From NCBI GenBank assembly GCA_934090935.1, contig CAKOKD010000001.1, positions 290,571-354,570 on the forward strand: a stretch of DNA of 64,000 bases, given 5' to 3'. This DNA comes from an uncultured Bacilli bacterium (GTDB lineage Bacteria; Bacillota_I; Bacilli_A; RF39; UBA660). Below are positions 3,956 to 57,599 of the stretch, piece after piece (within the stretch, counting starts at the first letter, position 1; the number at the start of each line of letters is the position of its first letter). Made by a program: the position numbers and the translations under genes. The notes beneath the pieces are model-generated. The model was not told where the DNA came from and ran no database searches. It saw only the letters and a list, made by a program, of their open reading frames with translations.

Positions 3956-4172
3956 TGTAAAGCAATTGATGAAGACGTTAAATAATGATTTTTTATAGAG
4001 AAGCTGTGGGTGGTGCAAACAGTTAAAAATAGTTATTTAAGAATCACTTCTAATGCGACTTAGGGATAAGCTAAGTACGTTTACTGCGTTAAAGTTAATA
4101 AAGTGTGAATTACATTCATAAAATAGGATGGTACCACGGACTTGTTCGTTCCTATGTTATGGATGTTTTTTT
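3956..4172 (+). promoter_or_regulatory. T-box riboswitch leader of ileS
   Basis: Conserved T-box sequence AAATAGGATGGTACCACGG at 4122-4139 followed by a U-run (4165-4172) before the ileS RBS. ileS is a classical T-box-regulated gene in Firmicutes. Stem I, specifier and terminator pairing were not resolved by eye. Confidence 0.6.
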
Positions 4173-7100: not shown

Positions 7101-7292
7101 AGTGGGTTAAATATTGAAGATAGAATTAAACTTTATTTCTATGGTGATGATGAAGTAAATGATGCTTTAATAATGTTTAAAGATTATGTTAAAGAAGAAA
7201 CATTAGCAGTAGTTTACGAAGAAAAAGAAAGTGGAGAAGTTGTGGATATCAACGGCCATGACGTTATAATATCAATAGAAAAGAGTGAATAA
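4191..7292 (+). CDS. ileS: isoleucyl-tRNA synthetase (long, type-2-like form)
   Basis: HIGH-like PGIHHVLAKT, KMSKSTGN, a zinc-knuckle CPRCG...CSCG, about 1030 aa. The track start at 4128 lies inside the leader; ATG 4191 (MKNFKELDK) with AAAGGAAA RBS is preferred. Confidence 0.93.
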   Translation: MKNFKELDKRKASEVEESILETWKKEDILNETIKNRKNGKNWVFYDGPIYANAKPGIHHVLAKTIKDSFCKYHTMKGERVLRKIGLDTHGLPIEVNVEKKLGFKTKADIEAFGVENFCRECNKATALNIDEINAVTDKMGQFIDCEHPYVTCSNEYIESEWWIIKEMDKKGLLYHGNKVLWYCPRCGTELSQNEVSQGYEETSVNTVIVPLKRVDADEYFLAWTTTPWTLMANVAICVNPELTYIKVLSQGYKFILASALASKVLGEDYEVLETYKGSDLVGIKYKQLMPFVHVEGKCHEVIADNYVTAEDGTGIVHIAPAYGEDDNRVCRENGIGFVNPVGLDGCYTEGPWKGTLVTDPNLEIEIIKWLKENDKLFKKIKIVHDYPHCWRCHSPLISYPKPAWYIKTTAYKDKIIEENKKINWYPDYVGNKRFANWLDNMIDWGISRNRYWGCPLPVWTCSCGNKCVVGSIDELQELVIEDVDVRKMELHRPYVDELHVKCDKCGKSMDRVKDVLDVWFDSGAMPYAQYHYPFENKELFESQFPADFIAEGLDQTRGWFYVLLVISTIISGESSFKNVVVNDMVLDGFGKKMSKSTGNIVDPINELDEYGADIVRWYMLSVSPVWTPLKYDSKGCREVHSKFFNPFKNTYTFFQTYANIDGIDTDECDVAYEDREEIDKWLLSKYNKLVKNVTDAYEAYDLNQVVKQITSFVSEDLSNWYIRRNRNRFWSSELDNSKKSVYITTYEVLIGLCGLCAPVIPYITEEIYKNLTGEKSVHLSDFPKYDENLINEEIEVKMDLVRDLISTGRYVREETKIKVRQPLSEALIDGKYESILGNLVSLINEELNVKKVTFVDDLSKYMNFTIKPNFKVCGSMFGSKMGLYSETLKNLSLDDEEALLKEETITVDFNGERLDITPEMVDVRIDAKEGFNVGMENNKFIILNTELTRDLLLEGLAREFVSKVQNMRKTSGLNIEDRIKLYFYGDDEVNDALIMFKDYVKEETLAVVYEEKESGEVVDINGHDVIISIEKSE

Positions 7293-7303
7293 CTCTTTTT
7301 TTT
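7279..7303 (+). terminator. intrinsic terminator of ileS (hairpin AGAGTGAATAACTCT plus T8), contiguous with the left end of cassette R1
   Basis: The inverted repeat spans the ileS stop codon and is followed by TTTTTTTT (7296-7303). Confidence 0.65.
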
Positions 7304-7345
7304 ATGCTTTCTAGGTTCTAATTTTGTCGACATTTGTCGGATTTA

Positions 7346-7373
7346 TTGACAATGAAAATTAACTATATATAAT
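7346..7373 (+). promoter_or_regulatory. consensus sigma-A promoter inside R1 (TTGACA-16-TATAAT), immediately preceded by the TGTCGACA palindrome
   Basis: TTGACA 7346-7351, TATAAT 7368-7373. TTGTCGACATTTGTCGG at 7324-7340 is a candidate operator. Confidence 0.6.
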
Positions 7374-7469
7374 ACAAACTCGAGAAGCAGAAAAAGATGC
7401 TTATCACTTCCAAACTAGAGGCTAAATTATTCGGGGTTTTGGTTAAGGAGTACGAGAGGAAGTGATACG

Positions 7470-7547
7470 ATGAAGAAGGATAATCAAATAAGATTACTTT
7501 ATCTAATCGTTTTTATATTGTTAATAGTAATTCTAAAATTATTATAG
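7470..7547 (+). CDS. small hydrophobic peptide (25 aa, MKKDNQIRLLYLIVFILLIVILKLL), candidate type I toxin
   Basis: ATG preceded by GAGGAAGTGATACG. The SD region GGAAGTGATA is complementary to upstream TATCACTTCC, predicting SD sequestration. ORF conserved in all three R copies. Confidence 0.5.
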   Translation: MKKDNQIRLLYLIVFILLIVILKLL

Positions 7548-7551
7548 CAAC

Positions 7552-7640
7552 AAAAAAAAGCATCTTTATTCTACTGAATAAGGATGCTACACCCATAAGT
7601 GGTAAGCATCAGCCTCAAAAGAAACTTCTGCTTCTCACTA
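7552..7640 (-). ncRNA. putative antisense sRNA (antitoxin candidate) convergent to the small ORF
   Basis: On the minus strand a TATATT -10 sits about 7 nt upstream of GTGAGAAGCAG, with a -35-like TTACAT 17 nt further up. The transcript would end at hairpin GCATCCTTATTCAGTAGAATAAAGATGC plus U8. The + strand has an A-run before this hairpin and no U-run after it, so it terminates minus-strand transcription only. Confidence 0.4.
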
Positions 7641-7750
7641 AATTAAATATAGCATAATCAAAATAAAATGTAAATATTTACACATAATAGTATTGTTATA
7701 CCGAATAAAAAATTAATCTATGGTACAATTAAAATAGAATGGTGTGTATT

Positions 7751-9061
7751 ATGAAGAGAAAGAGTGCATTAGTATTTACAATTTTATTATTAGCGGTGGG
7801 ATTTGCTGCCGTGTCAACAACTTTAGTAATAAATGGGTCTGCAAAAGTAAGTGAAAATACAGAGGATTTTTCTGTAATATTTACCAAGGCTTCATTAGAT
7901 GGAACAGATGTATATGCAAATATAGTTGATGATACTAAAAAGATAATAAATTTTTCAACAAATGAATTAAAGACAATAAATCAAACAAGTGTGTTAAATT
8001 ATGAAGTAACAAATAATTCAAGCAATTATGATGCTGAAGTTCAAGTAACTTGTAAATTAAAAGATGGTGGGTCTGCTAAATATACAAGTATCAAAAATGA
8101 ACTAGAAGGAAATGCAACAATTGTAAAAGCCAAAGAAAGCTTAAATGGAACATTAACAGTTAACTTAAAAAAAACTGCTACAGAAGAAGTAAATGAACAA
8201 TATGTTTGTGAACTAACGTTTAATGCAGTAGAGAGAACTCAGTTGGGAAATAATCCAGCTATTGATAAGCTAATATCTTTAGCTAATTCTGAGGAAATAA
8301 ATTCATATGAAAATGGAAATAAAAATCAATTATATGTTTTTAATCATGAGCAAACTAAACAAACAGAAGCCCTAAGCGACTATCGTTTTATTGGCGATAA
8401 TCCATATAATTATATAAAGTTTAGTGGTGAAACATGGAGAATATTAGGTATCTTTGATATTGATGGAGAAAAAAAGATTAAAATAATAAAAAATGATACT
8501 TTGGATAGTTCATACGCTTGGGATACTAACGGAAAAAATAATTTTATAATTTCAAGTTTAAATAATTATTTAAATGAAAATTATTATGAAACTTTGGATA
8601 AAAATTATATATCAAAAACAAAAATCTACTTAGGTGGAACTGATATGATGCAATATGTAAAGGCAAATGAATGGTATAGTCATGAAAGAAGTAATAAAGT
8701 GTATTCTGGAAACCCAAGTTATTATAATGACGCATATGTTTCTTTAATGTATCCATCGGATTTTGCTTATACTTATGCCTATGGAATTGACAATGAGTGT
8801 TTTAATAATGGATTTGGATGTGATGTTTCATCAGGAAGAACTAATAGTTGGATGTATATTGGTAAAAATATGGAAGCATTTATAACTCCTGATTCAAGTT
8901 CAAGTAATCAAATTTATAGAATGAATTCTTCCAGTGGTTATAATAAAAGTACATCTTCAACTTTAATGTATATAAGACCAGTTGTATATTTAAATAGCAA
9001 TGTGAAATTTATTTCAGGAGATGGATCAAGCACAAATCCTTATAAATTAGATACAAATTAG
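7751..9061 (+). CDS. secreted family member A: conserved N-terminal module plus lectin-like C-terminal domain
   Basis: Probable start MKRKSALVFTILLLAVGFAAV (the track's 7739 start adds MVCI). N-module is highly similar to the 14603 and 56406 genes (FSVIFTKASLDG.DVY..VDDTKKII.F......QTSVLNYEVTNNSSNYDAEV.VTC...YVCELTFNAVER). C-terminus ...WMYIG...YIRPVVYL...GSSTNPYKLDTN. Own promoter with extended -10 TGGTACAAT; no poly-G. Confidence 0.8.
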   Translation: MKRKSALVFTILLLAVGFAAVSTTLVINGSAKVSENTEDFSVIFTKASLDGTDVYANIVDDTKKIINFSTNELKTINQTSVLNYEVTNNSSNYDAEVQVTCKLKDGGSAKYTSIKNELEGNATIVKAKESLNGTLTVNLKKTATEEVNEQYVCELTFNAVERTQLGNNPAIDKLISLANSEEINSYENGNKNQLYVFNHEQTKQTEALSDYRFIGDNPYNYIKFSGETWRILGIFDIDGEKKIKIIKNDTLDSSYAWDTNGKNNFIISSLNNYLNENYYETLDKNYISKTKIYLGGTDMMQYVKANEWYSHERSNKVYSGNPSYYNDAYVSLMYPSDFAYTYAYGIDNECFNNGFGCDVSSGRTNSWMYIGKNMEAFITPDSSSSNQIYRMNSSSGYNKSTSSTLMYIRPVVYLNSNVKFISGDGSSTNPYKLDTN

Positions 9062-9097
9062 ATGAAACTAAAAAAGAATAATATATTAAAAAAACAC

Positions 9098-9125
9098 ATG
9101 ATTTCATGTGTTTTTTTTAATGTAT
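9098..9125 (+). terminator. intrinsic terminator after gene A
   Basis: AAACACATGATTTCATGTGTTT hairpin followed by a T-run. Confidence 0.65.
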
Positions 9126-9206
9126 TTTAATTTGCAAAAAGTTGTATAAAATAATTTGCAAAATTAAAAAAATTTTTTTCAAAGTAGTAATTTTCAACAA
9201 AAGAAA

Positions 9207-9240
9207 TTGACAATCGGGGGGGGTATTATAAAATAAAAAT
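9207..9240 (+). promoter_or_regulatory. family promoter with a G8 homopolymer in the spacer (TTGACA-atc-G8-TATTATAAAATA)
   Basis: G-run at 9216-9223 between a -35-like TTGACA (9207-9212) and an A/T-rich -10 region. Same architecture at 14547, 34011 and 56354. Confidence 0.6.
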
Positions 9241-9257
9241 AGATGAGGTGTGTTTAA

Positions 9258-10019
9258 ATGAAGAAAAGTGCAATAATAGTTGTAATTGTTTTTATGATGA
9301 TTGGATTTGCAGCAGTAAGTACGTCATTAATAATAAATAGTAATATAAAAGTATCAAAGAATGAAACGGACTTTGATGTATATTTTTCAAAGGCAAGATT
9401 GGATACAAAAGATGTATATGAAAGTGTAATAAGTCAAGATAAAAAGACAATAATATTTAATACAAATAATTTAAGTAAAGTAGGAGATAAACAGTACTAA
9501 CATATGAAGTAACAAATAATTCAAACAACAAGGAACTTCATTAAAACAAAATGGTACATATACAAGAATGTATGATACTGAGATTGGATATTTAGCAAGT
9601 ACATCAAGAAATATAAGTGGAATATATGATATGTCCGGTGGAGCACATGAATATATGTCAGTATATACCTTAGATAACTCTGATAATAGTGGAATAACTT
9701 TTACAAATTATGGCTCAAAGTATTATGATGTTTATAATGAATCGAGTATGACAACCAGTTACCAATGTAGAATATTAGGAGATGCAACGGAGAAATGGGG
9801 CCATTTACAACTTTGAAATCAATTGAAAGCAATAGCAGTATAAAAAGATATGTATCAAGTCGGTTTGCATCCTATGCATATTTTGTTTCCTCTTCAAGTC
9901 CATTTTTTGCACGCGGTGGTGATTATGGGCATGGTATATTTGCTGGGCAACTTTATTTTGGTGGTGCTTCTGGAGAAGCATATAGCTATGTTGGTTTTCG
10001 TCTAGTTTTAACACCTTAA
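9258..10019 (+). pseudogene. chimeric, frameshifted family pseudogene D (N-module of the 56406 type fused to the C-terminal region of the 57608 type)
   Basis: 9258-9500 encodes MKKSAIIVVIVFMMIGFAAVSTSLIIN... then stops. TYEVTNNSNN follows out of frame. 9568-10019 in two frames matches the C-terminus of the 57608 protein (TENISGVYDMSGG.HEY...YQ.RILGDAT...GFRLVLTP). Confidence 0.8.
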
Positions 10020-10030
10020 TAAAGGATGTT

Positions 10031-10061
10031 TCAATAGAAAAGAGTGAATAACTCTTTTTTT
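10031..10061 (+). repeat. 31-bp exact direct duplicate of the ileS 3' end and terminator (7272-7302)
   Basis: TCAATAGAAAAGAGTGAATAACTCTTTTTTT occurs at 7272-7302 and again at 10031-10061, bracketing R1 + gene A + pseudogene D. Confidence 0.85.
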
Positions 10062-10105
10062 CATGTATAAATGATGCTATAATAATAATAGAATAGAGGG
10101 TAATT

Positions 10106-10633
10106 ATGAAGTATGATGATTTAGTTAATATTTTATATCAAGATAATCTTAACTGGGTTTATTCAGTTATTACAACTCTAGATAAAGAAAAAATTGATAA
10201 AAAGGAAAAGTATATAAGTGATCCTTATCAATTTAATAATTTTTTAGTTCTAGGTTTCTATTTTATGAATTTATATATTATCAGTAATTTAAAGGAATAT
10301 AAATTCTATGATGCAACAAAACTTTTAACGACTGTTGTTTTTTCTGCAAGTACACATAATAAAGAAAAATTGATGGGAGTTTATAAAAAGGAAATCGATC
10401 TAAAAAGAATTGTTGAGCAATATAATTCGCTGGTAAGAAAAACGAAGGAGTTTGCGCCTACAGATGGATTAAAAGCAAGAATTGTTGCTATAGATGAGAT
10501 TTATAGAAGAATGTATGATGTGTTTAATAAAAGACATTTTGATGATTTCATCAGGGTTGTTATGTCGTCATTCCCTGAATATGAAAAAAAGATAGATCAA
10601 AGTTTAAAAGATTATGCAAAAAGAACAGTATAG
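10106..10633 (+). CDS. hypothetical protein
   Basis: ORF with AGAGGGTAATTATG start region; no recognised motifs. Confidence 0.45.
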   Translation: MKYDDLVNILYQDNLNWVYSVITTLDKEKIDKKEKYISDPYQFNNFLVLGFYFMNLYIISNLKEYKFYDATKLLTTVVFSASTHNKEKLMGVYKKEIDLKRIVEQYNSLVRKTKEFAPTDGLKARIVAIDEIYRRMYDVFNKRHFDDFIRVVMSSFPEYEKKIDQSLKDYAKRTV

Positions 10634-10645
10634 GAGGAGTTAGTC

Positions 10646-11101
10646 TTGGTAAATGATGAAAAAATAAAACAAGTGATAAGCGCCATTAAAGAAAATGGTT
10701 TAAAATCATTTAATGATGAATCGCTTGCTAAATTATTATCGATATTTACTGCTGAAGAATTTGATGAATTTCTAGAAAAGTCCTATTCTGAACTTGGTGG
10801 AGTAAGTGCAGTTGTTAGAATTAATTCAATTAGACCTTATGTTAGTTTCTTGGTAAATAAAGAACTCAATAAGATTTACAATTCGGATATATATAAGTTG
10901 TTTTTAGAATCATTAAAAAGAGGAGAATATTATGCTTATTTCAAGTCTTTAACAATAGAGGAATTAGCTAGTTTAAAAAAATATTTAACATATAATTATT
11001 CAAGCAGTGAGGAGTTAGCTAAAAGTGCAACAAAAAAAGTAATTAGTATGATTACTAAAGAGATAAGATTAAGAGAACAAAACAAAAACTTGGTTTTTTA
11101 A
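10646..11101 (+). CDS. hypothetical protein
   Basis: GGAGGAG RBS upstream; no recognised motifs. Confidence 0.45.
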   Translation: MVNDEKIKQVISAIKENGLKSFNDESLAKLLSIFTAEEFDEFLEKSYSELGGVSAVVRINSIRPYVSFLVNKELNKIYNSDIYKLFLESLKRGEYYAYFKSLTIEELASLKKYLTYNYSSSEELAKSATKKVISMITKEIRLREQNKNLVF

Positions 11102-11110
11102 CCAAGTTTT
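11082..11110. terminator. bidirectional intrinsic terminator between the 10646 ORF and rpsD
   Basis: AACTTGGTT-TTTT-AACCAAGTT hairpin with A-run upstream and T-run downstream. Confidence 0.6.
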
Positions 11111-11118
11111 ATTTTTTT

Positions 11119-11721
11119 CTATCTATTGTAGAACTCAACTACTAATGATTCATTGATATCAGCTGATAATTCAGTTCTTTCAGGATATCTAAGATAAGTT
11201 CCTGTAAGTTTTTTATTATCGAATTCAACATATGCAGGTGTTTTTACACCAGCTTCTAAAGAAGCTTTGATTGCTGGATGTTCAAGTGAATTTTCTTTAA
11301 CACTTATAACATCACCAGGTTTACAAGAATATGAAGGAATATCAACTTTTGAACCATTAACTAGGATATGTCCATGATTTACAAGTTGTCTTGCACCACG
11401 TCTAGTAGTTGAAAGACCCATTCTATATACTAGGTTATCTAATCTAGATTCTAGTAATTTTAAGAAGTTTTCACCATGAACACCTTTCAACTTAGCAGCT
11501 CTATCAAATAGTCTTCTAAATTGTTTTTCATTTAATCCATACATAAATCTGATTTTTTGTTTTTCTTGTAATTGGATACCATATTCACTAATCTTTTTTC
11601 TTCTTCCTGCACCATGTTGTCCTGGAGCATAAGGTCTCTTAGCTAAATCTTTTCCATTTTCTAATGTAGAAAAACCATATCTTCTAGATTTTTTGTATGC
11701 TGGACCAGTATATCTTGCCAT
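11119..11721 (-). CDS. rpsD: 30S ribosomal protein S4
   Basis: [18 protein letters not shown]...[15 protein letters not shown]; 200 aa. Confidence 0.95.
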
Positions 11722-11970
11722 AAATTTTCTCCTTTCTTATATTTACTATAGTAAAGGACTATTTAACATACTTAGTAGGGAGTTTAACTTTCTTTCCCTT
11801 AGGCAGTTTAAGTTACTAGATTTTTATTCTTAAACACATTACTAATTTTGTTAAATGACTGCCAATCACTACGCATTAGTAATATACACTAAATATATGC
11901 AAAAGTCAATTAAATTAGACTTTTTTTTGAGCAATTATTATGTTAAAATTGTTTATAGAATAGGGTATGG

Positions 11971-14388
11971 GTGATGAGTGTGAGCGATTTAAAAGAACAC
12001 TTTAAAATGAACTATGATATACTTCCAAATATCTCAAACATAGTCAAAGGAAATAAATATCGTATAACAGTGCTTTCAGAAATACTAGTTCGTCTTGAAT
12101 ATTCGGAAACAGGTAAGTTTGAAGATCGTCCAACTGAACTTGCAATAAATAGAAAATTTAATCCAGTGAAGTTTGAAAAACATGAGGATAATAAATATTT
12201 GACAATCAAAACTAAATATTTCACTTTAACGTATCAAAAGGAAATGCCTTTTTATGGTTCAAAAGTTAGTCCAGATCAATATATGAGAGTTAATTTAAAT
12301 GATACTGATAAGTTTTGGTATCCACTTCATCCTGAAGTTAGAAACTTCTTGGGTACGGCTTATTCTCTTGATGGAGCAAATGGGCATGCAAAACTTAATA
12401 AGGGCCTTTATTCGACAGATGGTTTTGTTTCTTTAGATGACTCTGAAAGTTTAATTTTTAATGAGGATGGTTCTTTAGGTCGTAGAACGGATAAAAGAGT
12501 TGATATATATCTTTTTATGTATAAGCGTGATTTTGGAGCTTGCTTAAAGGATTATTTTACTTTAACGGGATATCCTCCGTTAATTCCAAGATATGCTTTA
12601 GGTGTTTGGTGGAATAGAAATACTGCTTATAATTCAAAAGATTTAGAAAAATTGGTGTTTGATTTTAATAAATATCGTGTTCCACTTTCAATAATTATGC
12701 TTTCTGATAAATGGCATAGAAAAAATGAAGGATTAGTATCAGGTTTTACTTTTGATGAGAAATTGTTTAAAAGGCCTAAAAGAATGGCCGATTATTTACA
12801 TAATAAGAATGTAAGGCTTGCTGTTAAAGTGAATCCGGTTTTGGGAATAAGTGATAAAGAGGATTATTTTATACCATATAGAAACGGAGCTAATTTAGGG
12901 GATAAAAGTGGAATAGTTCCATTTAATGTCTTTAATAAAGATGAATTGAACTCTTATTTTGATAATTTAATTCATCCACTTATGAATTATGGTGTTGATT
13001 TTTTCTGTGTAGATTATAATAATTCAAAAGATTTAACTACTTTAAGAGCATTGACTCATTATCATTTTGATGATTTTAAGCAGCTTACAAATAGAAGAGG
13101 TATTGTTCTTGCAAGAGATGGTCTTTTAGCCGCGCATAGATATCCAATTCATTATACAGGAGAGATGCTTGTATCTTGGAAAAATTTAGAGATGCTTCCA
13201 TCTTTTAATAGCACAGCATCAAATATTGGACTTTCATGGATTTCAAACGATATTGGTGGTTATACTGGGGGAATTGAAGAAGGAGAACTTTATTCAAGGT
13301 TTGTTCAATTTGGATGTTTTTCTCCAATTCTTCGTCTTTCATGTGATGAAAGTAGATATTTTAAAAGAGAACCATGGGCTTGGGATACTAAAACTCAATC
13401 AGTGGTTATCAAGTATTTAAGACTAAGGCATTCATTAATTCCATATCTTTATAGTGAAGCTTATAGATATTCAAGAATAGGTCTTCCGCTTGTTCAACCA
13501 ATTTATTATAGATATCCGGAAATATATGATGAACCTTTATATAGAAATGAATACTACTTTGGAACCAATTTGTTTGTTGCGCCAATTACAAGCAAAAAGG
13601 ATGTTTTGATGGATAGATCCGTGTTAAAACTTTTTTTACCTGATGGAATTTGGTATGATTTTACAAATGGTAAAAGATATGTTGGCGGAAAACGTTATAC
13701 AACATTTTATAAAGAAGAAGATTATCCGGTGTTCGCGAAAGCAGGAACTATTATACCAATGGATATATTAAATGATAATGATCTTAATAATACTAATCCA
13801 TCTAAATATATGGAAATTCAAGTATTTCCAGGAGCATCAAGTACGTATGAGATGTATGAAGATGATGGAAATTCATCTCTTTATGAACAAGGATTTTATC
13901 TTTTAACGAGCATAGATTACACTTATCAAGCAAACAATTTCACGGTTATAATTAGACCTGTAGCTGGAAAAAGTGGAATAATTCCAGAGATGCGTTCGTA
14001 TAGAATAAGATTTAGAAATACAAGAGAAGCTGATGAAGTACAAGTGCATTCTGGTGAAGAGATAGTTAAAATGGTTAATTCATATATAGATGATTCAGAT
14101 TTTGTTGTTGAGCTTCCACCTTTATCTACATTGAAACAGATAACAATTAATTGTAAGGGAAGAGATATTGAAATTGATGCTTTAAGACTTATTAATGATG
14201 ATATTGATTCCATACTTAATGATTTACCAATTGAGACTAAAACAAAGGATAAACTAGGAGAAATCTTGTTAAGTGATATGGATATAAAACAAAAAAGAAT
14301 AAAAATACGTAAATTAAGAAAAGAAAAATTAAATCAAAAATATATCAATCTTTTCTTAAAGTTACTGGAATATATAGCTGAAGTGTAA
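11971..14388 (+). CDS. glycoside hydrolase family 31 (alpha-glucosidase or alpha-xylosidase type)
   Basis: GH31 hallmarks: WWNRNTAY, KVNPV, FFCVDYNN, WISNDIGGYTGG; 805 aa, no signal peptide. Confidence 0.8.
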   Translation: MMSVSDLKEHFKMNYDILPNISNIVKGNKYRITVLSEILVRLEYSETGKFEDRPTELAINRKFNPVKFEKHEDNKYLTIKTKYFTLTYQKEMPFYGSKVSPDQYMRVNLNDTDKFWYPLHPEVRNFLGTAYSLDGANGHAKLNKGLYSTDGFVSLDDSESLIFNEDGSLGRRTDKRVDIYLFMYKRDFGACLKDYFTLTGYPPLIPRYALGVWWNRNTAYNSKDLEKLVFDFNKYRVPLSIIMLSDKWHRKNEGLVSGFTFDEKLFKRPKRMADYLHNKNVRLAVKVNPVLGISDKEDYFIPYRNGANLGDKSGIVPFNVFNKDELNSYFDNLIHPLMNYGVDFFCVDYNNSKDLTTLRALTHYHFDDFKQLTNRRGIVLARDGLLAAHRYPIHYTGEMLVSWKNLEMLPSFNSTASNIGLSWISNDIGGYTGGIEEGELYSRFVQFGCFSPILRLSCDESRYFKREPWAWDTKTQSVVIKYLRLRHSLIPYLYSEAYRYSRIGLPLVQPIYYRYPEIYDEPLYRNEYYFGTNLFVAPITSKKDVLMDRSVLKLFLPDGIWYDFTNGKRYVGGKRYTTFYKEEDYPVFAKAGTIIPMDILNDNDLNNTNPSKYMEIQVFPGASSTYEMYEDDGNSSLYEQGFYLLTSIDYTYQANNFTVIIRPVAGKSGIIPEMRSYRIRFRNTREADEVQVHSGEEIVKMVNSYIDDSDFVVELPPLSTLKQITINCKGRDIEIDALRLINDDIDSILNDLPIETKTKDKLGEILLSDMDIKQKRIKIRKLRKEKLNQKYINLFLKLLEYIAEV

Positions 14389-14390
14389 GA

Positions 14391-14422
14391 AACATGTATG
14401 AATTTACATGTTTTTTTTTGGT
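14391..14422 (+). terminator. intrinsic terminator after the GH31 gene
   Basis: AACATGTATGAATTTACATGTT hairpin plus T9. Confidence 0.65.
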
Positions 14423-14546
14423 TTTAAATTTATTGAATAAGAATACTAAATAAACTCAAGTAGCAAGCATAAGTTAAAAAATATTTTGTTTCTCTTGATA
14501 AACCAAAATATAAAATGCAAAAAAAGTGTAAACAAGGAAGTTTTGC

Positions 14547-14582
14547 TTGAAAATCGGGGGGGGGTATTATAAAATAAAAAAG
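14547..14582 (+). promoter_or_regulatory. family promoter with a G9 homopolymer (TTGAAA-atc-G9-TATTATAAAATA)
   Basis: G-run at 14556-14564. Confidence 0.6.
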
Positions 14583-14602
14583 TAAAGGAAAGTAGGTATA
14601 AT

Positions 14603-16114
14603 ATGAAAAAGAAGAGTATGCTTATAGTAGCAATTATATTAATGTCAATTGGATTTGCTAGCATTTCAACGACATTAATAATAAACGGGAATGCAAACGT
14701 AAGTGAAAATCAAGATGACTTTTCAGTTATCTTTACAGCTGCAACATTAGATGGAAAGGATGTATATTCATCAGTAGTAGATGATACAAAGAAGATAATA
14801 ACATTTGAAACATCAGAATTAAAAACATTAAATCAAACATCAGTATTAAATTATGAAGTAACAAATAATTCAAGCAACTATGATGCAAATGTAAATGTAA
14901 CATGTGTACCAAAGGAAGGAACAATAGCAAAATATACAAGCATCAAAAATAAATTAGAAAACGAAGCAACAGTTGTAAAAGCAAAAAGTTCAGTAAATGG
15001 AACATTAACAGTAACACTAGATAAGGTAGCAACTGAAGCAGTTACAGAAGAATATACATGTAAGTTAGAATTTAATGCAGTCGAAAGAACTGAAATTGCA
15101 GTAGGAACAACTAATTTATATAATTTAATAAAAAATAATGCTGATACTAAAACCGTAATAGATTATAAGGTACGTTCAGGAGTAAGTGGAACAAATGGAA
15201 TATATACAACAACTGCTACTGAAGGTAATGTACCAGTATATTATTATAGAGGAGCAGCTGATAAAGTAAATAATAATATAATATTTAATAATATGTGTTG
15301 GAAGATAATAAGAACAACTGAAAACAATGGAGTAAAACTAATATATAACGGAACACCAACAGATGGCAAATGTGAAACTCAAACAGGAGAAGCAACTCAA
15401 ATAGGAACAAGTGCATTTAATACAAATTATACCGATAATGCATATGTTGGCTATATGTATGGAACAGCAGGAAGCAACACCTATGCAGCAACTCATGCAA
15501 ATACAAATGACTCAACAATAAAAACATATATAGATAATTGGTATAAAGCTAATTTTGATGAAATAACAACATCAAAATTGGAAGATACAGTATTCTGTAA
15601 TGATAGAAGTACAAAAGCATATGATGCAAAGACAATTGGAGAAACTTCCTTTTCATCCTTTGGTTCATTAGGATATGGGAAAAGTGCATCATTGTATGGA
15701 GCAGCACATCGAGCATCATATTGGTCGAACAATCCAAATCCAAGTTTAGTGTGTCAAAATCAAAATGATAAATTTACCGTAGATAGTAAAAATGGAAACG
15801 GAAAACTAACATATCCAGTTGGATTAATAACATTAGATGAGGTAGTGCTTGCAGGATTTAATACAAAATATTCCAATACAGGTGATTATGATGATGTAAC
15901 AAATTACTTATATACAAATAGCATTTATTGGACATTCTCCCCTGTGATGCTGGATGCTCGTGGTTATGCTTGTGTTGGTTATGTCTATAGTGCTGGCTAT
16001 GTGCACTATGACTATGTGGGCGGTGCTCGTGGGGTCCGTCCAGTAGTTTCGCTTATCAGTGGCACACTTGTAACTGGTTCTGGTACAACAACTAACCCAT
16101 ATGTGGTTGAATAA
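14603..16114 (+). CDS. secreted family member B: conserved N-module plus longer lectin-like C-terminal domain
   Basis: MKKKSMLIVAIILMSIGFASISTTLIINGNANVSEN...VTCVPK...YTCKLEFNAVER. C-terminus ...WKIIRTTENNGVKLIYNG...LITLDEVVLAG...YWTFSPV...GVRPVVSLISG...GTTTNPYVVE. Confidence 0.85.
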   Translation: MKKKSMLIVAIILMSIGFASISTTLIINGNANVSENQDDFSVIFTAATLDGKDVYSSVVDDTKKIITFETSELKTLNQTSVLNYEVTNNSSNYDANVNVTCVPKEGTIAKYTSIKNKLENEATVVKAKSSVNGTLTVTLDKVATEAVTEEYTCKLEFNAVERTEIAVGTTNLYNLIKNNADTKTVIDYKVRSGVSGTNGIYTTTATEGNVPVYYYRGAADKVNNNIIFNNMCWKIIRTTENNGVKLIYNGTPTDGKCETQTGEATQIGTSAFNTNYTDNAYVGYMYGTAGSNTYAATHANTNDSTIKTYIDNWYKANFDEITTSKLEDTVFCNDRSTKAYDAKTIGETSFSSFGSLGYGKSASLYGAAHRASYWSNNPNPSLVCQNQNDKFTVDSKNGNGKLTYPVGLITLDEVVLAGFNTKYSNTGDYDDVTNYLYTNSIYWTFSPVMLDARGYACVGYVYSAGYVHYDYVGGARGVRPVVSLISGTLVTGSGTTTNPYVVE

Positions 16115-16247
16115 AAATCAATAATTCTAAGATAACTTTGGTTATCTTTTTTTATGTTTCATAAATCTAATGTGAATATAAATCACTACTAAAAAGGAGA
16201 TAATGTATGATATGTTTTAACTGTAAAAATATGTAGTTGGAGGAAAT

Positions 16248-16901
16248 ATGAAAAGTGCAGTTAAAGTGGTTAATTTAAATAAAAATTATTATGTGCATAA
16301 AAATACAATTAGTGTATTTAAAAACTTAAATTTAAATTTTTATTATGGAAAGATGTATGGAATTATAGGACATTCTGGTTGTGGAAAGTCGACTTTAATA
16401 AAAATCATTGGGTTATTGGAAAACTATGATTCTGGAAATATTTTCATTAATAATCAGGATATAAGTAAAACAAGTTTGATTGATCAAGCAAAATTAAGAA
16501 ATGAAAAAATAGGATTTGTATTTCAAGATTATTTATTGGATGATTATTTAAATGTTTACGATAATATTTTACTTCCAACGTTGTTAAATAAAAAAGATAA
16601 TAAAAACAATATTATTGATTTGGCTAAAACATATGGAATTGAAAATAGATTAAAACATTTTCCAAAAGAATTATCTGGAGGAGAGCAAGCACGCGTTGCT
16701 CTTATTAGAGCTATAATTAATGATCCTGATATTATATTGGCTGATGAACCAACTGGAAATTTGGATGGAAAAAATGAAGTTCTTGTTTTAAATAATCTAA
16801 AAAAAATTGCTAGAAATGGAAAATGTGTTATTGTTGTAAGTCACTCTAAAGATATAGAAAAATATGTTGATGAAATAATTGATTTGGAAGGAGAACTTTA
16901 A
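16248..16901 (+). CDS. ABC transporter ATP-binding protein (MacB/FtsE-like)
   Basis: Walker A GHSGCGKST, signature LSGGEQARV, Walker B ILADEPT. Confidence 0.85.
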   Translation: MKSAVKVVNLNKNYYVHKNTISVFKNLNLNFYYGKMYGIIGHSGCGKSTLIKIIGLLENYDSGNIFINNQDISKTSLIDQAKLRNEKIGFVFQDYLLDDYLNVYDNILLPTLLNKKDNKNNIIDLAKTYGIENRLKHFPKELSGGEQARVALIRAIINDPDIILADEPTGNLDGKNEVLVLNNLKKIARNGKCVIVVSHSKDIEKYVDEIIDLEGEL

Positions 16902-18069
16902 GATGTATTTTGATTATGTAAGAAAACATATATTAAATTGGAAAAATTTTATCTTATTTCTAATCTTTCTATTTACCAATTTAGCAATTTTATTATCAAT
17001 AAGTGTTGGATATACATTTGTTTTGTTAAAACAATCATATTTTTATAAATATAGCGGATTTAGAACTATCATTGTTGATTCTAATGATATTAATAATTTG
17101 AAAAAAATAGATCATGTACTTGCTGTAGAAGATGCAAAGTATAGAAATCCTCTAACTTTTTCTTCTAAAGACTTCGATTCAGATTTAAAAGTTGAAATTT
17201 TAATTAATGCTTTGATATCTAAAGAAGATTTAAAAATAAAAAGAGGTAAGATGATAAAAAATGCTAATGAAGCTATATGTTCAGATACTTTTTTTCCATA
17301 TGAAATAGAAGTAAGAAACGGAAAAACTATTTTTAATAAAAGTAGAATCATAAGTGGTAAATCGATATTAAATAAGAGCTTTAGTATATATGAAAATGAT
17401 GAAAAAATAGCAACATATGATATAGTTGGTACTTTTGATACTAAAAAAACGATGAACGCTTTGAATTCTTGTTATATATTAAAAGACGATTTCGAAAAAA
17501 TTATTCAAGATGAAAGTGACTTAGAACAATCTACTTCAAATAGTAATGAAAGTGGTTCTATGCTATTAGTTGATAAATATGAAAATGTAGAAAACGTTTT
17601 AAAGGAACTAAAAAAAAGAAATGATTCTTATTATGTTGTATCAGAACTAAATGAAGGATATATTAAAATTCTTACTTATTTTCCTATATTTGCTTCAATA
17701 ATAATCTCTCTTTTATTTATGATAGTTTTGGAATCATTTTTGTCAAAAAAAATAAAATATAGATCAAAGTGTAATGCAATTTTAAAGTCTATTGGATTTG
17801 AAAATAGAAAAATTGAAAATATAAATATTTTAGAAAACGTTATATTATTTTTTATTTCATTTGTTATTTCAATTATTTTATACTTAATTTTATTCTTTTA
17901 TATAAAAAATGTTTTGCTTGCGGAATATATTTATGATGGAACTTTTATACCTTTTTCAATTATTCCAATCATTCTTTCTTTTATTTTAGAAGTTATTATA
18001 ATTCTTTTGGTAAACAAAAGAGTATTACGTTTTAAATTAAATAAAAGTGTAGAGGAAATTCTTTTATGA
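16879..18069 (+). CDS. ABC transporter permease, FtsX-like
   Basis: N-terminal TM, large extracytoplasmic loop, C-terminal TM bundle; translationally coupled to the ATPase gene. Confidence 0.6.
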   Translation: MIWKENFKMYFDYVRKHILNWKNFILFLIFLFTNLAILLSISVGYTFVLLKQSYFYKYSGFRTIIVDSNDINNLKKIDHVLAVEDAKYRNPLTFSSKDFDSDLKVEILINALISKEDLKIKRGKMIKNANEAICSDTFFPYEIEVRNGKTIFNKSRIISGKSILNKSFSIYENDEKIATYDIVGTFDTKKTMNALNSCYILKDDFEKIIQDESDLEQSTSNSNESGSMLLVDKYENVENVLKELKKRNDSYYVVSELNEGYIKILTYFPIFASIIISLLFMIVLESFLSKKIKYRSKCNAILKSIGFENRKIENINILENVILFFISFVISIILYLILFFYIKNVLLAEYIYDGTFIPFSIIPIILSFILEVIIILLVNKRVLRFKLNKSVEEILL

Positions 18070-24478: not shown

Positions 24479-24698
24479 ATTTATAACAATATAAATTAAA
24501 ATGACTATAATTAAGAGTGTATAACTCTTTTTTTTGTATTTTAGGTTCTAATTTTGTCGACATTTGTCGAGTTTGTTGACAAGAAAAATTAACTATATAT
24601 AATAACCAATTGAGAAGCAGAGAAAGATGCTTATCACTTCCAACTAGAGGCTAAATATTCAGGGTTTTGGTTAAAGGAGTACTAGAGGAAGTGATACG

Positions 24699-24776
24699 AT
24701 GAAAAAAGATAATCATATAAGATTACTTTACTTAATCGTTTTAATATTGCTAGTAATAATTTTAAAATTATTATAG
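24699..24776 (+). CDS. small hydrophobic peptide (25 aa, MKKDNHIRLLYLIVLILLVIILKLL), candidate type I toxin, copy 2
   Basis: Same RBS-sequestering arrangement as R1. Confidence 0.5.
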   Translation: MKKDNHIRLLYLIVLILLVIILKLL

Positions 24777-24863
24777 GAAAAAAAGCATCTTTATTCTACT
24801 GAATAAGGATGCTACAACAAACACGTGGTAAGCATCGGCCTCAAAAGGAACTTTTGCTTCTCA
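24777..24863 (-). ncRNA. putative antisense sRNA, copy 2
   Basis: Minus-strand TTGAAA-17-TATATT upstream of GTGAGAAGCAAAAG; ends at the conserved hairpin plus U-run. Confidence 0.4.
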
Positions 24864-24917
24864 CTAAATAAAATATAACATTTTTTAAAAGTGTTTTCAA
24901 TATATAAGGTAATAATT

Positions 24918-33497: not shown

Positions 33498-33670
33498 GTG
33501 TTTTATTTTTTTAGGTTCTAATTTTGTCGACATTTGTCGGATTTATTGACAAGGTAAATAAAGTATATATAATACAAACTCGAGAAGCAGAAAAAGATGC
33601 TTATCACTTCCAAACTAGAGGCTAAATTATTCGGGGTTTTGGTTAAAGGAGTACGAGAGGAAGTGATACG

Positions 33671-33754
33671 ATGAAAAAAGATAATCATATAAGATTACTT
33701 TATCTAATCGTTTTTATATTGTTAATAATAATTTTAAAATTATTATGTCAATAA
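33671..33754 (+). CDS. small hydrophobic peptide (27 aa, MKKDNHIRLLYLIVFILLIIILKLLCQ), candidate type I toxin, copy 3
   Basis: Conserved ORF, RBS paired with the upstream TATCACTTCC. Confidence 0.5.
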   Translation: MKKDNHIRLLYLIVFILLIIILKLLCQ

Positions 33755-33838
33755 AAAAAGCATCTTTATTCTACTGAATAAGGATGCACCGCAAAATGTG
33801 GTAAGCATCAGCCTCAAAAGAAAACTTCTGCTTCTCAC
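33753..33838 (-). ncRNA. putative antisense sRNA, copy 3
   Basis: Minus-strand TTGTAA-17-TATATT then GTGAGAAGCAG; ends at the hairpin plus U7. Confidence 0.4.
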
Positions 33839-33895
33839 TAAAATAAATATAACATTTTTCAATATAAATTACAATGATAATAAATAAATACACTT

Positions 33896-34065: not shown

Positions 34066-36180
34066 ATGAAGAAAACGACAATAATGCTAGTTACTGTTTT
34101 ATTTATGATAATAGGATATGCAGCATATAATGCAACTGTAAATATATATGGATTAGGTAAGATATCAGAAAATATAAGTGACTTTAAGGTATATTTAGAT
34201 AATTTAAAAGTAAATGATACAGAAAATACAGGAATAAATGATGTAAAAGATGAATTTACAATAGATAATGTAAATGGAAAAATAAGTGTAGATATAGTAA
34301 ATGATTCAACAGAATATGATACAGAAAGTTATCTTGAGTGTGCAAGTATAGTAACACCAGATAAAACTGAATGGAGATTTGATTATACAGGTGCTGAACA
34401 AACATTTACAGCACCAATGTCTGGAACATATAAGCTTGAGACATGGGGAGCTCAAGGTGGAAGTGTTGGAAACTATACTGGTGGCTATGGGTCATATTCA
34501 ATAGGTGATTTATATTTAACACAAAATAGTAAAATTTATATTAATATTGGTGGAGCTGGTACAACTGGAAAATTGGATGCATCATTTGTTGTAACTCCTG
34601 GTGGCTATAATGGAGGTGGAATAAATACTTCAGATGTCTATGGTTATGGAGCTACGGGCGGAGGAGCGACTCATATATCTACAACATCAGGTCTACTTTC
34701 AGAAAATGCGAATAATTTATCAAACTTATTAATCGTATCTGGAGGCGGCGGAGGAAGTGGGCAAGAAAGTGGATTAGGATATTGCTATGGAGGTTCCGCT
34801 GGAGGAATATCAAGCACCAAAGGTTATTCTAATCCAAATCGATATTATGCTCCAGGCGATGTTGGTACTCAAACAACAGGTTTTGCATTTGGTAAAGGCG
34901 GAGATTCAAAATCTTGGCTTGGATCCGGTGGAGCAGGTTTATATGGAGGCTATTCTGGATGTGGAGGCGCGGGAGGCTCGAGTTATATCGGAAACTCACT
35001 CTTAACAGAAAAATCAATGTACTGTTATAATTGTACTGAATCAACTGAAGAATCAACACGAACTATAAGTACTACATGCACAAGTGCAACACCAACCGAA
35101 AACTGTGCAAAACAAGGTAATGGATATGCACGTATTACTCTAGTTTCAAGTGACGAAATAGAAAAAATATCAACAGAAGTGGTAACTATAGAAGCCCAAG
35201 ATAAGAAAAAAGTAACCTTAGAAAATATAAATACAGGCAGTTTAACTTGTAAGTTAAAAGTTAATAAATTATCACGAACAACTAAAGAGGAAAAATATAT
35301 AGGTCCAACAGAATGGACATTTGATTATACAGGAAGCGAGCAAACTTTTACAGTACCAATAAGTGGAACATACAAGCTTGAAACATGGGGAGCACAAGGT
35401 GGAAATGCTATTTATACAAATTATAGTGGTACTGGTGGTAAAGGATCATATGCAGGTGGAGTAATTGAATTTAATGCAAACACAAAAATATATGTTTATG
35501 TTGGTGGAAAAGGTACGAATGGCAATAATTCAAGAGCCGCTACTTTAATTGAGGGTGGTTACAATGGAGGAGGTAACAATCAATCTTTAGATTCTGCATC
35601 ACCTGCTGGAGGCGGAGCAACCGATATTAGATTAACAAATGGATTATGGAATAACTTTGATTCTCTTAAATCTAGAATAATGGTTGCTGGAGCTGGAGGC
35701 GGATCTGGAATAGAGAATGTAGGTGCTCCAGGAGGATTGAATGCTGGAGTCTATGGAACTCTATATGGAGGAAACGGAACTTCAACTTCAGGTGGAGCAG
35801 CTGGTACTGGATATAGCCACAATAGTGGAGCAACAAACGGAACATTTGGAGTTGGTGGAAACGGTGGACGATATATCACAGGAGCTGGAGGTAGTGGTTA
35901 CTATGGCGGAGGCGGAGGAAATCATTATTCGCCAGCTACCTCCGGAGGTGGAGGCGGCGGTTCTTCTTTCATCTCAGGACATGACGGATGTGATGCAATA
36001 TCCGAAAACTCTACAGCATCAAATATAATACATACAGGTCAATCTATACATTATAGTGGATATTATTTTACTCAAACTATAATGAAGTCTGGAGACGAAA
36101 CAATGCCAAGTCATGATGGGAAAAGCACTATGACAGGAAATAGTGGTAATGGATACGCACGTATTACGTTAATAAAATAA
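34066..36180 (+). CDS. secreted glycine-rich repeat protein (family-type leader plus short N-module plus two tandem Gly-rich modules)
   Basis: MKKTTIMLVTVLFMIIGYAAY leader. Two repeats each start EW.FDYTG.EQTFT.P.SGTYKLETWGAQGG and end GNGYARITL. Runs of GGGGG, GGATDIRL and VAGAGGGSG. Confidence 0.8.
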   Translation: MKKTTIMLVTVLFMIIGYAAYNATVNIYGLGKISENISDFKVYLDNLKVNDTENTGINDVKDEFTIDNVNGKISVDIVNDSTEYDTESYLECASIVTPDKTEWRFDYTGAEQTFTAPMSGTYKLETWGAQGGSVGNYTGGYGSYSIGDLYLTQNSKIYINIGGAGTTGKLDASFVVTPGGYNGGGINTSDVYGYGATGGGATHISTTSGLLSENANNLSNLLIVSGGGGGSGQESGLGYCYGGSAGGISSTKGYSNPNRYYAPGDVGTQTTGFAFGKGGDSKSWLGSGGAGLYGGYSGCGGAGGSSYIGNSLLTEKSMYCYNCTESTEESTRTISTTCTSATPTENCAKQGNGYARITLVSSDEIEKISTEVVTIEAQDKKKVTLENINTGSLTCKLKVNKLSRTTKEEKYIGPTEWTFDYTGSEQTFTVPISGTYKLETWGAQGGNAIYTNYSGTGGKGSYAGGVIEFNANTKIYVYVGGKGTNGNNSRAATLIEGGYNGGGNNQSLDSASPAGGGATDIRLTNGLWNNFDSLKSRIMVAGAGGGSGIENVGAPGGLNAGVYGTLYGGNGTSTSGGAAGTGYSHNSGATNGTFGVGGNGGRYITGAGGSGYYGGGGGNHYSPATSGGGGGGSSFISGHDGCDAISENSTASNIIHTGQSIHYSGYYFTQTIMKSGDETMPSHDGKSTMTGNSGNGYARITLIK

Positions 36181-56240: not shown

Positions 56241-56353
56241 CACATAATAAAAATGAATATACAAAACACAACTAAAATGTTGTATAATATAAGAAACAAT
56301 AGGAGAATAAAATAAAAAAGACGACAAAAGTAATGTAAAACAAAATAATGCCC
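56241..56353 (+). promoter_or_regulatory. conserved AT-rich leader (copy of the 33896-34010 region)
   Basis: See 33896 entry. Confidence 0.45.
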
Positions 56354-56388
56354 TTGAAAATCGGGGGGGGTATTATAAAATAAAAATA
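56354..56388 (+). promoter_or_regulatory. family promoter with a G8 homopolymer (TTGAAA-atc-G8-TATTATAAAATA)
   Basis: G-run at 56363-56370. Confidence 0.6.
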
Positions 56389-56405
56389 GATGAGGTGTGT
56401 TTAAG

Positions 56406-57599
56406 ATGAAGAAAAGGAGTGCAATAATAGTTGCAATTGTTTTTATGATGATTGGATTTGCAGCAGTAAGTACGTCATTGATAATAAATGGAAATGCTAA
56501 TGTTAGCGAAAGCAATGAAGATTATTCAGTAATATTTACTAAAGCTTCATTAGATGGAGAAGATGTGTATTCAACAGCAGTAGATGATACAAAAAAGATA
56601 ATTACATTTACAAGTAAGAATCTAATGAAAGTCGGAGACACATCAACACTTACATATGAAGTAACAAATAATTCAGCAAACTATGATGCAGAAGTGCGTG
56701 TTACATGTGTACCAAAAGACGGAACAACAACAAAATATACAAGTATCAAGAATGAACTTGAAGGAAATGCAACGAAGGTATTAGCAAAAGAAAGTATAAA
56801 TGGAACATTAACAATAACACTTTCAAAACAATCAATCGAAGAAGTGAGTGAAGAATATACATGTTCGTTAGAATTCAATGCAACTGAGAGAGATGAACTT
56901 GGAGAAAATATTCAAGATCCAGTATCATTTACAACAGATTCCTGGGAGACTATTCAAAAAGCAGTTAAAATAGGAAATACAAGTAAATATAATGTAGGGG
57001 ATACAAAAGAAATAAATTTAACTAATTTTGGAACACATACAGTGCGTATATCAAATATGAGTGCATGCACAAATGGAGAAACAAGTGAAACAGCATGTGG
57101 GTTTGTAGTAGAATTTGCAGATATAATAACAAAACATACATTTAATAATACATCAACAAATGTAGGAGGTTGGAAAAATTCAGAAATACGTACATATGTA
57201 AATGGAACAATATATAATTCTTTACCAAGTGAATTACAAAATGCTATCACTTCAACAAAGGTAATATCAGGACATGGAAGTACAAGTGGAGAGACAAATT
57301 TTGAAACACAAGACAAAGTATACCTAATATCATCAAAAGAATTATACGGAACAGCGACAGTCAAAGATACTTTAAGCACTGAAACAAAGCAATTGGATTA
57401 TTATAAAAATAAAGGAGTTACTTTATTAAAATACACTGAAGCTGTAAAAAAGTATAATCTACAAGACGTAAACTGGTGGCTTCGATCAGCAACTTCCGAT
57501 ACAACAGACTTCTTTCTTGACGTAGCAACAAAGGGAGTCTGGACAAACGGAGCTTCTACTGCATTAAATGGCATTTCTCCAGCATTTAGAATAGGATAG
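56406..57599 (+). CDS. secreted family member C: conserved N-module plus lectin-like C-domain ending ...WWLRSATSD...GISPAFRIG
   Basis: TGAGGTG RBS 8 nt before ATG 56406 (the track's 56397 start is GTG). N-module is close to the 9258 pseudogene N-terminus. Confidence 0.85.
   Translation: MKKRSAIIVAIVFMMIGFAAVSTSLIINGNANVSESNEDYSVIFTKASLDGEDVYSTAVDDTKKIITFTSKNLMKVGDTSTLTYEVTNNSANYDAEVRVTCVPKDGTTTKYTSIKNELEGNATKVLAKESINGTLTITLSKQSIEEVSEEYTCSLEFNATERDELGENIQDPVSFTTDSWETIQKAVKIGNTSKYNVGDTKEINLTNFGTHTVRISNMSACTNGETSETACGFVVEFADIITKHTFNNTSTNVGGWKNSEIRTYVNGTIYNSLPSELQNAITSTKVISGHGSTSGETNFETQDKVYLISSKELYGTATVKDTLSTETKQLDYYKNKGVTLLKYTEAVKKYNLQDVNWWLRSATSDTTDFFLDVATKGVWTNGASTALNGISPAFRIG

Follow-up and report, generated by a model that had tools for sequence, protein, structure and literature searches.

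In a 64,000-nucleotide (nt) stretch of the genome of an uncultured Bacilli bacterium (GenBank assembly GCA_934090935.1, contig CAKOKD010000001.1, positions 290,571 to 354,570 of the forward strand), which we call the window and to whose own numbering all coordinates below refer, we analyzed pseudogene D, located at positions 9258-10019. D joins the 5' part of a gene of a surface-protein family to the tail of a gene of another type, called here the E type. We class it as an ordinary fusion pseudogene, belonging to a surface-protein family of an uncultured gut lineage that is mosaic and probably phase-variable: its frame is disrupted, its lesions are reproducible, essential parts of its domains are lost, and it is able to make no family protein. 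Probably, this species-fixed fusion arose through one illegitimate internal deletion followed by two 1-nt deletions, with a 5' part that is still recombining. D itself is dead, and its value is that of a marker of an actively recombining family.

Five genes of the window, B, D, F, G and C, have one common type of 5' end, coding in all of them for a leader that is hydrophobic and would anchor the protein in the membrane (MKK..IGFAAVST.LIING...). An N-terminal module (N-module) of ~140 residues comes next in B, C and F, and the C-terminal domains of the family genes are mutually unrelated. D belongs to the family by its conserved leader (...IGFAAVST.LIIN...) and by the N-module motif TYEVTNNS, the latter in a shifted frame, and is the sole relic of its kind within the 64 kb. 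The family genes and the E gene are located as follows.

7751-9061: family gene B, intact, with a terminator at 9088-9117.
9258-10019, forward strand: pseudogene D, fusion of a family 5' part and an E-type tail.
14603-16114: family gene F.
34066-36180: family gene G.
56406-57599: family gene C.
57608-59020: E gene, 8 nt downstream of C.

From its ribosome-binding site to its last stop codon, D is composed of the following elements.

9245-9250, forward strand: ribosome-binding site GAGGTG, 7 nt before the ATG, with the same sequence in C and in L006.
9258-9500, forward strand: fragment 1, an 80-codon open reading frame (ORF) with a premature TAA at 9498-9500, encoding the leader (~residues 1-27) plus the initial ~52 N-module residues.
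9491-9492, forward strand: first 1-nt deletion, GATAAA directly followed by CAG where alignments show GATAAATCA in intact homologues, outside any homopolymer.
9494-9529, forward strand: leftover N-module codons in the -1 frame, reading VLTYEVTNNSNN and including the conserved TYEVTNNS motif, where N-module homology ends.
9530-9534, forward strand: fusion junction, AAGGA, assignable to neither parent, with its two sides out of frame by 1 nt.
9535-9789, forward strand: E-type tail part 1 in frame 1, TSLKQNGTYTRMYDTEIGYLASTSRNISGIYDMSGG...YQCRILGDAT, 52% identical in amino acids (aa) to E residues 316-404.
~9789-9790, forward strand: second 1-nt deletion, ACG directly followed by GAG where homologues have ACNGGNGA, all E-type homologues reading GDATGEMGPF.
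9789-10019, forward strand: E-type tail part 2 in frame 0, GEMGPF...GFRLVLTP, with TAA at 10017-10019.

The ORF of fragment 1 begins MKKSAIIVVIVFMMIGFAAVSTSLIIN... and is, as an earlier interpretation made from the letters only (the sequence-only reading) had proposed, a family leader plus the start of an N-module. The same reading had N-module codons resuming after the stop and a +1 shift; they do resume, in a frame shifted by -1 (equivalently +2). The further frameshift that it placed near 9795-9816 corresponds to the 1-nt deletion at ~9789-9790, and its quotations from D are correct apart from TENISGIYDMSGG (TENISG...), for which D reads SRNISGIYDMSGG. N-module homology is over by 9529 and E-type nucleotide homology to L007 starts at 9535, which sets the limits of the junction. 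Since all three frame changes in D are -1, the junction itself is out of frame.

Both parents are truncated at this junction. On the N-terminal side, D retains about the first 90 N-module-family codons, corresponding to ~residues 1-92 of a ~165-residue module; on the other side, it retains the last ~160 codons of an E-type domain of ~400 residues. An AlphaFold (AF2) model of C, built with 14 homologues and confident only for residues 40-163 (predicted local distance difference test score, pLDDT, of 74-88), shows a seven-strand beta sandwich, in which D would break off after ~3 of the 7 predicted strands. A Foldseek search with this model returned only generic immunoglobulin-like sandwiches, with white spot syndrome virus (WSSV) VP37 on top (E=9e-4), and no specific family for the N-module. 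The join also lies mid-way in a weakly FGE-sulfatase-like region, where the weak match of the related L030 gene spans the equivalent of the junction; Pfam and NCBIfam searches of the D fragments and of E gave no matches.

The lesions of D are fixed in this species and are not assembly errors. We located independent assemblies through the exact orf175 protein, encoded downstream of D, and obtained five human-gut metagenome contigs from different cohorts, including the Hadza (L001-L005). The fragmentation of D into 80, 82 and 74 residues is identical in all five; over the 1 kb of the D region, four contigs show 100% identity and one shows 99.9%. Among collected proteins, the fragment ORFs are found on 36, 38 and 45 contigs, the 38 belonging to the 82-aa ORF (9568-9816) and the 45 to the 74-aa ORF, and the alleles L105 and L106 share the first deletion and the junction of D. 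A 24-nt junction sequence had 0 matches in JGI metagenome contigs, the species being represented in ENA assemblies instead. Re-sequencing that exposed assembly errors had been proposed as a refutation of the pseudogene; the recurrence of the fragments on 36-45 contigs speaks against such errors, and the view that D is a real, decaying copy stands. There is practically no chance that the frameshifts are sequencing or assembly errors in an intact gene, given that the three ORF fragments recur in independent assemblies from different cohorts and assemblers, that the lesions lie outside homopolymer runs, and that a repair of both indels would still leave the junction out of frame and both domains truncated. 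We also considered programmed or phase-variable frameshifting within D, which is unlikely, the indel sites being neither homopolymers nor repeats and the same in all assemblies. Among strains, the whole stretch from 7.5 to 11 kb is nearly invariant, and single-nucleotide polymorphisms cluster elsewhere, in recombination tracts.

The two halves of D have different relatives. Within the window, the 5' part is closest to C, with 77.4% identity (blastn, 9186-9523 against 56329-56675, E=3e-69), compared to 69% for F, 67% for B and 72% over 187 nt for G; the protein of the N-part is 62% identical to C, 56% to F and 51% to B. The tail is 70.2% identical to E by blastn (9586-9807 against 58586-58817, E=8e-20), 66% in a global alignment, and 46.5% over 157 residues at the protein level. 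We searched conceptually repaired D against 5.8 billion proteins, where the N-part matches P0006 at 93% and P0007 at 91% aa identity, both intact 401-residue DUF6273 proteins; at the nucleotide level, it is 95% identical to L006, far above C. The best matches of the tail anywhere reach only 60-65% aa identity (P0001, P0003, P0004 and L007). Indeed, a 162-aa tail query is 65% identical to the L007/P0001 subtype, and the tail shares with it the subtype insert ...TCGWT.NEDCN..ESTSLNQDGTYTKRYNTEIG..., the version of D being GTSLKQNGTYTRMYDTEIG.

A separate leader, marked by a ...NVQDAI.EL... motif, begins the full-length E-type proteins (P0027, P0029 and E itself). Because this leader differs from that of the family and the identities are low, the N-terminus of E does not make it a family member, and the C and E copies of this genome are not the source of D. 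The sequence-only reading had described D as a chimera of two family members, with a 5' part closest to C, a tail that "matches" E, and C and E adjacent elsewhere. The adjacency is correct (the gap is 8 nt) and a family N-module is indeed joined to an E-type tail, but C is the closest relative in the window only, the homology of the tail is real and its match overstated, the leader of E is the one common to full-length E-type proteins elsewhere, and the fusion is not one of C with E.

Upstream of D, the poly-G promoter is intact, as had been claimed. The promoter and the tracts of the family are the following.

9207-9234, forward strand: sigma-70-type promoter of D, with -35 TTGACA at 9207-9212, a 16-nt spacer (ATC+G8+TATTA) and -10 TAAAAT at 9229-9234.
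9216-9223, forward strand: G8 tract of D in the promoter spacer, whose length sets the spacing (G7=15, G8=16, G9=17); G8 in seven assemblies (window, L001-L005, L105) and G7 in L106.
14556-14564: F tract, G9 in the window, G8 in L001 and L003.
56363-56370: C tract, G8 in the window, L093, L095 and L097, G7 in L094 and L096.

In a promoter scan, the D promoter (TTGACA-16-TAAAAT) matches the consensus at 11 of 12 positions. A common promoter, TTGA(C/A)A-ATC-G(8-9)-TATTA-TAAAAT, with an ATC-Gn-TATTATAAAATAAAA layout, is found upstream of D, C, F and G, and runs of at least seven G occur at only four loci of the window (0.31 expected by chance), each just upstream of a family gene. The differences in tract length fit slipped-strand phase variation of promoter strength. 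Homopolymers in promoter spacers cause phase variation in Mycoplasma hyorhinis vlp (poly-A) and in Neisseria meningitidis porA (poly-G) and opc (poly-C). Here too, the homopolymer lies between -35 and -10 upstream of a surface-protein multigene family, and its length varies between isolates at C, F and D. Nevertheless, switching is known in those systems, whereas here it is predicted from sequence, and at D the tract would control only a dead gene. The literature searched contained nothing relevant on phase variation or homopolymers in RF39-type gut lineages. In related species, the family gene adjacent to ileS has an intact G7 tract in L018 (11485) and an interrupted one, GAGGTGGGGC, in L016 (~8972-9032), which is possibly a "locked" promoter.

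Several mosaic patterns involve the 5' part of D and of its paralogues. The nucleotide identity between D and C is 92% in the promoter and 5' untranslated region, rises to 97.5% over the leader and then falls to 68% over the N-module, a mosaic boundary near 9340. At an orthologous locus adjacent to type IV secretion system (T4SS) genes, the contigs L006, L103 and L104 are 96-100% identical over 2.5 kb, and of the 81 differences that separate L006 from L104, 57 fall inside one 192-nt patch at codons ~8-71 (L006 8022-8213; Fisher p=2e-48). The L006 patch is 94.8% identical to D of the window and ends inside the stretch that D retains. The L104 patch as a whole is only ~80% identical to C and to F of the window; in 50-nt steps, L103 and L104 are 98% identical to C at the start and 96% identical to F just after. 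An F-like patch is also present in L097, a C allele of the same species. The D allele L105 is a recombinant: its first 271 nt follow the intact P0007 gene (L107) with one mismatch, and the remainder follows window D with none. The switch falls within a 28-nt interval directly ahead of the first D deletion, and the upstream neighbour differs. Finally, genes with several kinds of C-domain carry the D-type N-segment as well, namely DUF6273 (P0006, P0007), glycine-rich (P0011), F-type (P0124) and other (P0013) domains.

Judged by these alignments, the 5' cassette of the family is exchanged by homologous recombination, in which D takes part, and the wider claim of the sequence-only reading that family segments recombine is strongly supported by the L006/L104 patch and the L105 allele. 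The first ~250-300 nt of D probably still recombine with intact paralogues, and its poly-G tract probably still slips. This exchange of the cassette explains why dead D keeps a promoter, ribosome-binding site and leader near-identical to those of its paralogues, and recombination of its 5' part with them accounts for the presence of the D-type N-module segment in live genes.

The family gene of the T4SS-adjacent locus is itself an intact DUF6273 gene, with VirD4-, TraG- and HerA-like neighbours (VirD4-like upstream, HerA-like downstream), and may ride on a conjugative element. At the F locus (window ~14390-16114), the Hadza strain L002 carries two family genes instead of F (14283-17326), one of 453 aa that has a glycine-rich domain and one of 505 aa that is of the F type and shares 80% identity with F; the promoter is devoid of poly-G. 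Between strains of one species, the whole locus has thus been replaced.

As to the origin of the fusion, we propose a single illegitimate internal deletion. Its substrate may have been one N-module/E-domain gene from which the middle was removed, or a C-type gene and its downstream E-type partner between which the span was removed; the deletion would have left a join out of frame and inside both folds, and the two 1-nt deletions would have come later. Both arrangements exist, the first as an intact 578-aa ORF of L030 (8117-9853) with leader, N-module and E-type domain, and the second as the C-to-E tandem with its 8-nt gap, present in the window (56406-59020) and in L093. We favor one illegitimate deletion over an exchange of modules because the join lies within two folds, is out of frame and has no homology between its sides. 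The sequence-only reading, which took D as direct evidence of module shuffling, is not borne out by a join located mid-domain in both parents. Still, a recombination between two loci, one holding a C-like gene of the family and the other an E-like gene, would make D a trace of shuffling between N- and C-modules, and such an origin would agree with N-modules of one allele type sitting on several different C-domains, with the existing mosaic patches, with the coexistence of C-type and E-type genes in this genome, and with the unequal distances of the two halves from their nearest relatives (95% in nucleotides for the N-part, 60-65% in amino acids for the tail). We consider it unlikely: live mosaics exchange in frame at conserved motifs, the two sides of D share no homology to support homologous recombination, a deletion in cis needs only one event for which both substrates are documented, and a conversion that later affected the 5' part accounts for the difference in age between the halves. 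Some observations nevertheless weigh against a deletion followed by continued exchange. There is no convincing microhomology at the junction, a family leader joined to an E-type tail occurs in 0 of the 120 best protein matches, and L030 is the lone example seen of the single-gene architecture. No intact or less-decayed D orthologue was found, so that the progenitor (one gene, a tandem pair or two loci) is inferred rather than observed. Concerning the exchange, the L006 patch is 95%, not ~100%, identical to D, which means that this copy of D was not the immediate partner, and L006, L103, L104 and L107 may come from a species other than that of the window. With a length of 721 nt, the metagenome contig L105 might be a chimeric assembly, although the identical overlap of its parents is only ~28 nt, far below the assembler k of 141. 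Between strains, the region from 7.5 to 11 kb also varies too little for a selection test on D.

A role for D as it stands was considered in two forms. It is very unlikely that D is live, its promoter driving an 80-residue membrane-anchored peptide or a phase-variable read-through into orf175 and orf151. It is true that promoter, ribosome-binding site and 80-codon ORF are intact in all alleles, and that only a weak terminator (a 5-bp stem, duplicated from the ileS terminator) separates D from orf175, but recombination with live paralogues explains the intact 5' part, the 80-residue product stops after ~3 of the 7 sandwich strands, and sister genomes express orf175 without D. Doubtful, too, is a function as an archive, in which D would be kept as a donor for segmental gene conversion into expressed family genes, like pilS, vls or MgPar. 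Here, the D-type 192-nt patch in an intact orthologous gene, which ends inside the stretch that D retains, the presence of D in all sampled strains of the species and its ORF-intact 80-codon segment speak for a donor. On the other hand, D has a promoter, ribosome-binding site and start codon, unlike silent cassettes, and is the only relic in 64 kb; no tract identical to D occurs in the expressed genes C, F, B and G, whether of this genome or of contigs from the same species; in the single clear event at the D locus (L105), D is the recipient of sequence or a party to a crossover; the closest sister genomes are devoid of D; and its tail gathers changes, such as TGA to TGG in P0126. Of the earlier suggestion of a reservoir, the exchange of family segments and the participation of D can be kept, while donor activity was not observed.

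Gene conversion from silent cassettes is well known in Neisseria pilE/pilS, Borrelia vlsE and Mycoplasma genitalium MgPar. Like those cassettes, D is a partial, non-functional copy that shares segments with expressed paralogues, and here as well, alleles of an expressed locus differ by short mosaic tracts (~190-270 nt) that conserved motifs delimit. It differs from them in keeping its promoter and start codon and in being single instead of arrayed. In addition, intact paralogues also exchange here (the F-like patch of L097), which resembles general concerted or mosaic evolution. A closer likeness is found in the fusion pseudogenes that deletions produce in contingency families: both parents of D are truncated, its junction is out of frame, secondary frameshifts follow, and it is fixed within the species and absent from sister lineages. 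Only its retained, still recombining 5' cassette sets it apart.

The traits of the family taken together, namely poly-G promoters that vary between the strains of different people, interchangeable head domains (DUF6273, glycine-rich, FGE-sulfatase-like and leucine-rich repeats) and N-terminal exchange by tracts of ~200-270 nt, form the genetic toolkit of immune or phage evasion known from mycoplasmas and neisseriae. In the literature searched, we found no description of such a combination for this lineage. A more far-reaching and tentative possibility, which we think improbable on balance, is that D is a working node of an antigenic-variation system, in which poly-G switches would choose the expressed member and conversion tracts of ~200-270 nt would shuffle the exposed first half of the immunoglobulin-like N-module among live genes and archived copies like D. 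If true, a Mycoplasma- or Neisseria-style contingency system would exist in a never-cultured, genome-reduced Bacilli commensal of the human gut. Many metagenome contigs (L094, L095, L096 and several from Logan) break off within the promoter and N-module region of gene C or a little upstream of it (window 56260-56850), which suggests that family repeats or population heterogeneity break assemblies there. Metagenome assemblies are interrupted at the family loci, with contigs ending inside the N-module, and reports therefore probably underestimate how much the surface of such organisms varies.

A domain search assigns DUF6273 to gene C and two ALK/LTK-type glycine-rich domains to gene G, and leaves the C-terminal domains of B and F unassigned. 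In the related L030, an 888-aa family member (9880-12546) has the leader and N-module followed by a long leucine-rich-repeat (BspA-like) region, and this gene represents a further type of head domain in the family.

The E-type domain may be distantly FGE-sulfatase-like. The PF03781 match of L030 scores 20.2 bits, below the cut-off of 23.3; sub-threshold PF03781 matches occur in 5 of 20 E-type homologues (E of at least 0.002), and E and the D fragments have none. The tail ends in a ...GFR(L/I)VL motif. Neither E nor an E-type profile had a significant match among PDB sequences, and the AlphaFold model of E (mean pLDDT 44) is too poor for a fold search. FGE-sulfatase/C-type-lectin-like (PF03781) and DUF6273 domains are found in phage receptor-binding proteins and as targets of diversity-generating retroelements (DGRs) (PMC10743442). 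The GFR(L/I)VL end and the sub-threshold PF03781 matches of the E type, together with the DUF6273 of C, resemble these surface proteins. Nevertheless, the E and D tails show no adenine bias, unlike DGR-targeted domains, and Pfam thresholds are unmet for E and D. A DGR template/variable-repeat relationship between the D and E tails was rejected for the same absence of bias and for the many indels: the mismatches, counted by the base in D, are 56 A, 40 T, 36 G and 24 C, with 32 gap columns, in a D tail composed of 157 A, 157 T, 98 G and 63 C.

E-type genes appear to be broken unusually often across the clade, decayed or rearranged ones being common (L007, P0020 and P0003). L007 (7056-8720) holds a decayed E-type gene with stops, frameshifts and an internal deletion, and P0020 is an intact ORF in which a different N-module is joined to an E-type tail. 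Dozens of database ORFs of ~206-209 aa begin at an internal MMKNTEWG of the E-type domain (P0002, P0005, P0008, P0012 and ~40 others). The domain is also found behind a prepilin-type N-terminal methylation leader (PF07963) in P0003, P0025, P0035 and L062 (7365-8879), so that in some relatives the E-type head domain may sit on a type IV pilin-like stalk. For the 372-aa ORF downstream of E, the exact protein is not on record, probably due to a differing start call.

D lies in a lineage-specific block between ileS and orf175, with the following limits.

7307-10030, forward strand: lineage-specific block comprising a ~370-nt repeat, gene B, the terminator of B and pseudogene D.
7272-7306 (left) and 10031-10065 (right), forward strand: direct repeats bounding the block, made of the last ileS codons and a weak terminator, 97% identical over 35 nt.

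The window has a G+C content of ~27%, with most genes on the forward strand. When species-representative genomes were searched for the C-terminal half of isoleucyl-tRNA synthetase (IleRS), the relatives retrieved were metagenome-assembled genomes named uncultured "Bacilli", "Tenericutes" and "Erysipelotrichaceae", as well as "Firmicutes bacterium CAG:582", a set that we take to be the RF39 group of GTDB. In the closest ones, L013 and L015 (IleRS 96-97%), orf175 directly follows ileS, B and D are absent and the repeat is present in a single copy. L016 and L018 (~90% IleRS identity) have one family gene at the site, with the same direct repeat on both sides. This comparison suggests that the ileS-orf175 gap is a recurrent insertion or excision site for family cassettes, with the B-D block as a lineage-specific occupant. 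Upstream of ileS, a T-box leader is located at 3957-4156 (Rfam RF00230, 100 bits), the only match of an Rfam scan of the whole window.

The ~370-nt repeat occurs three times in the window (7307-7680, 24513-24881 and 33501-33868) with 88-92% identity, one copy being the left edge of the B-D block and another lying just upstream of gene G. Its RNA fold has -81.8 kcal/mol (z=-7.3), with no Rfam match for the repeat. It has a perfect TTGACA-16-TATAAT promoter at 7346-7373 and a 25-codon hydrophobic ORF at ~7470-7547, with the consensus MKKDNHIRLLYLIVFILLIIILKLL, from which the copy at 7470 (MKKDNQ...) differs by a few substitutions. The ORF is followed by a strong hairpin, and the ends of the repeat are complementary (GAGAAGCAG...CTGCTTCTC). 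With these features, the repeat resembles either a small mobile unit or a module akin to a type I toxin-antitoxin system.

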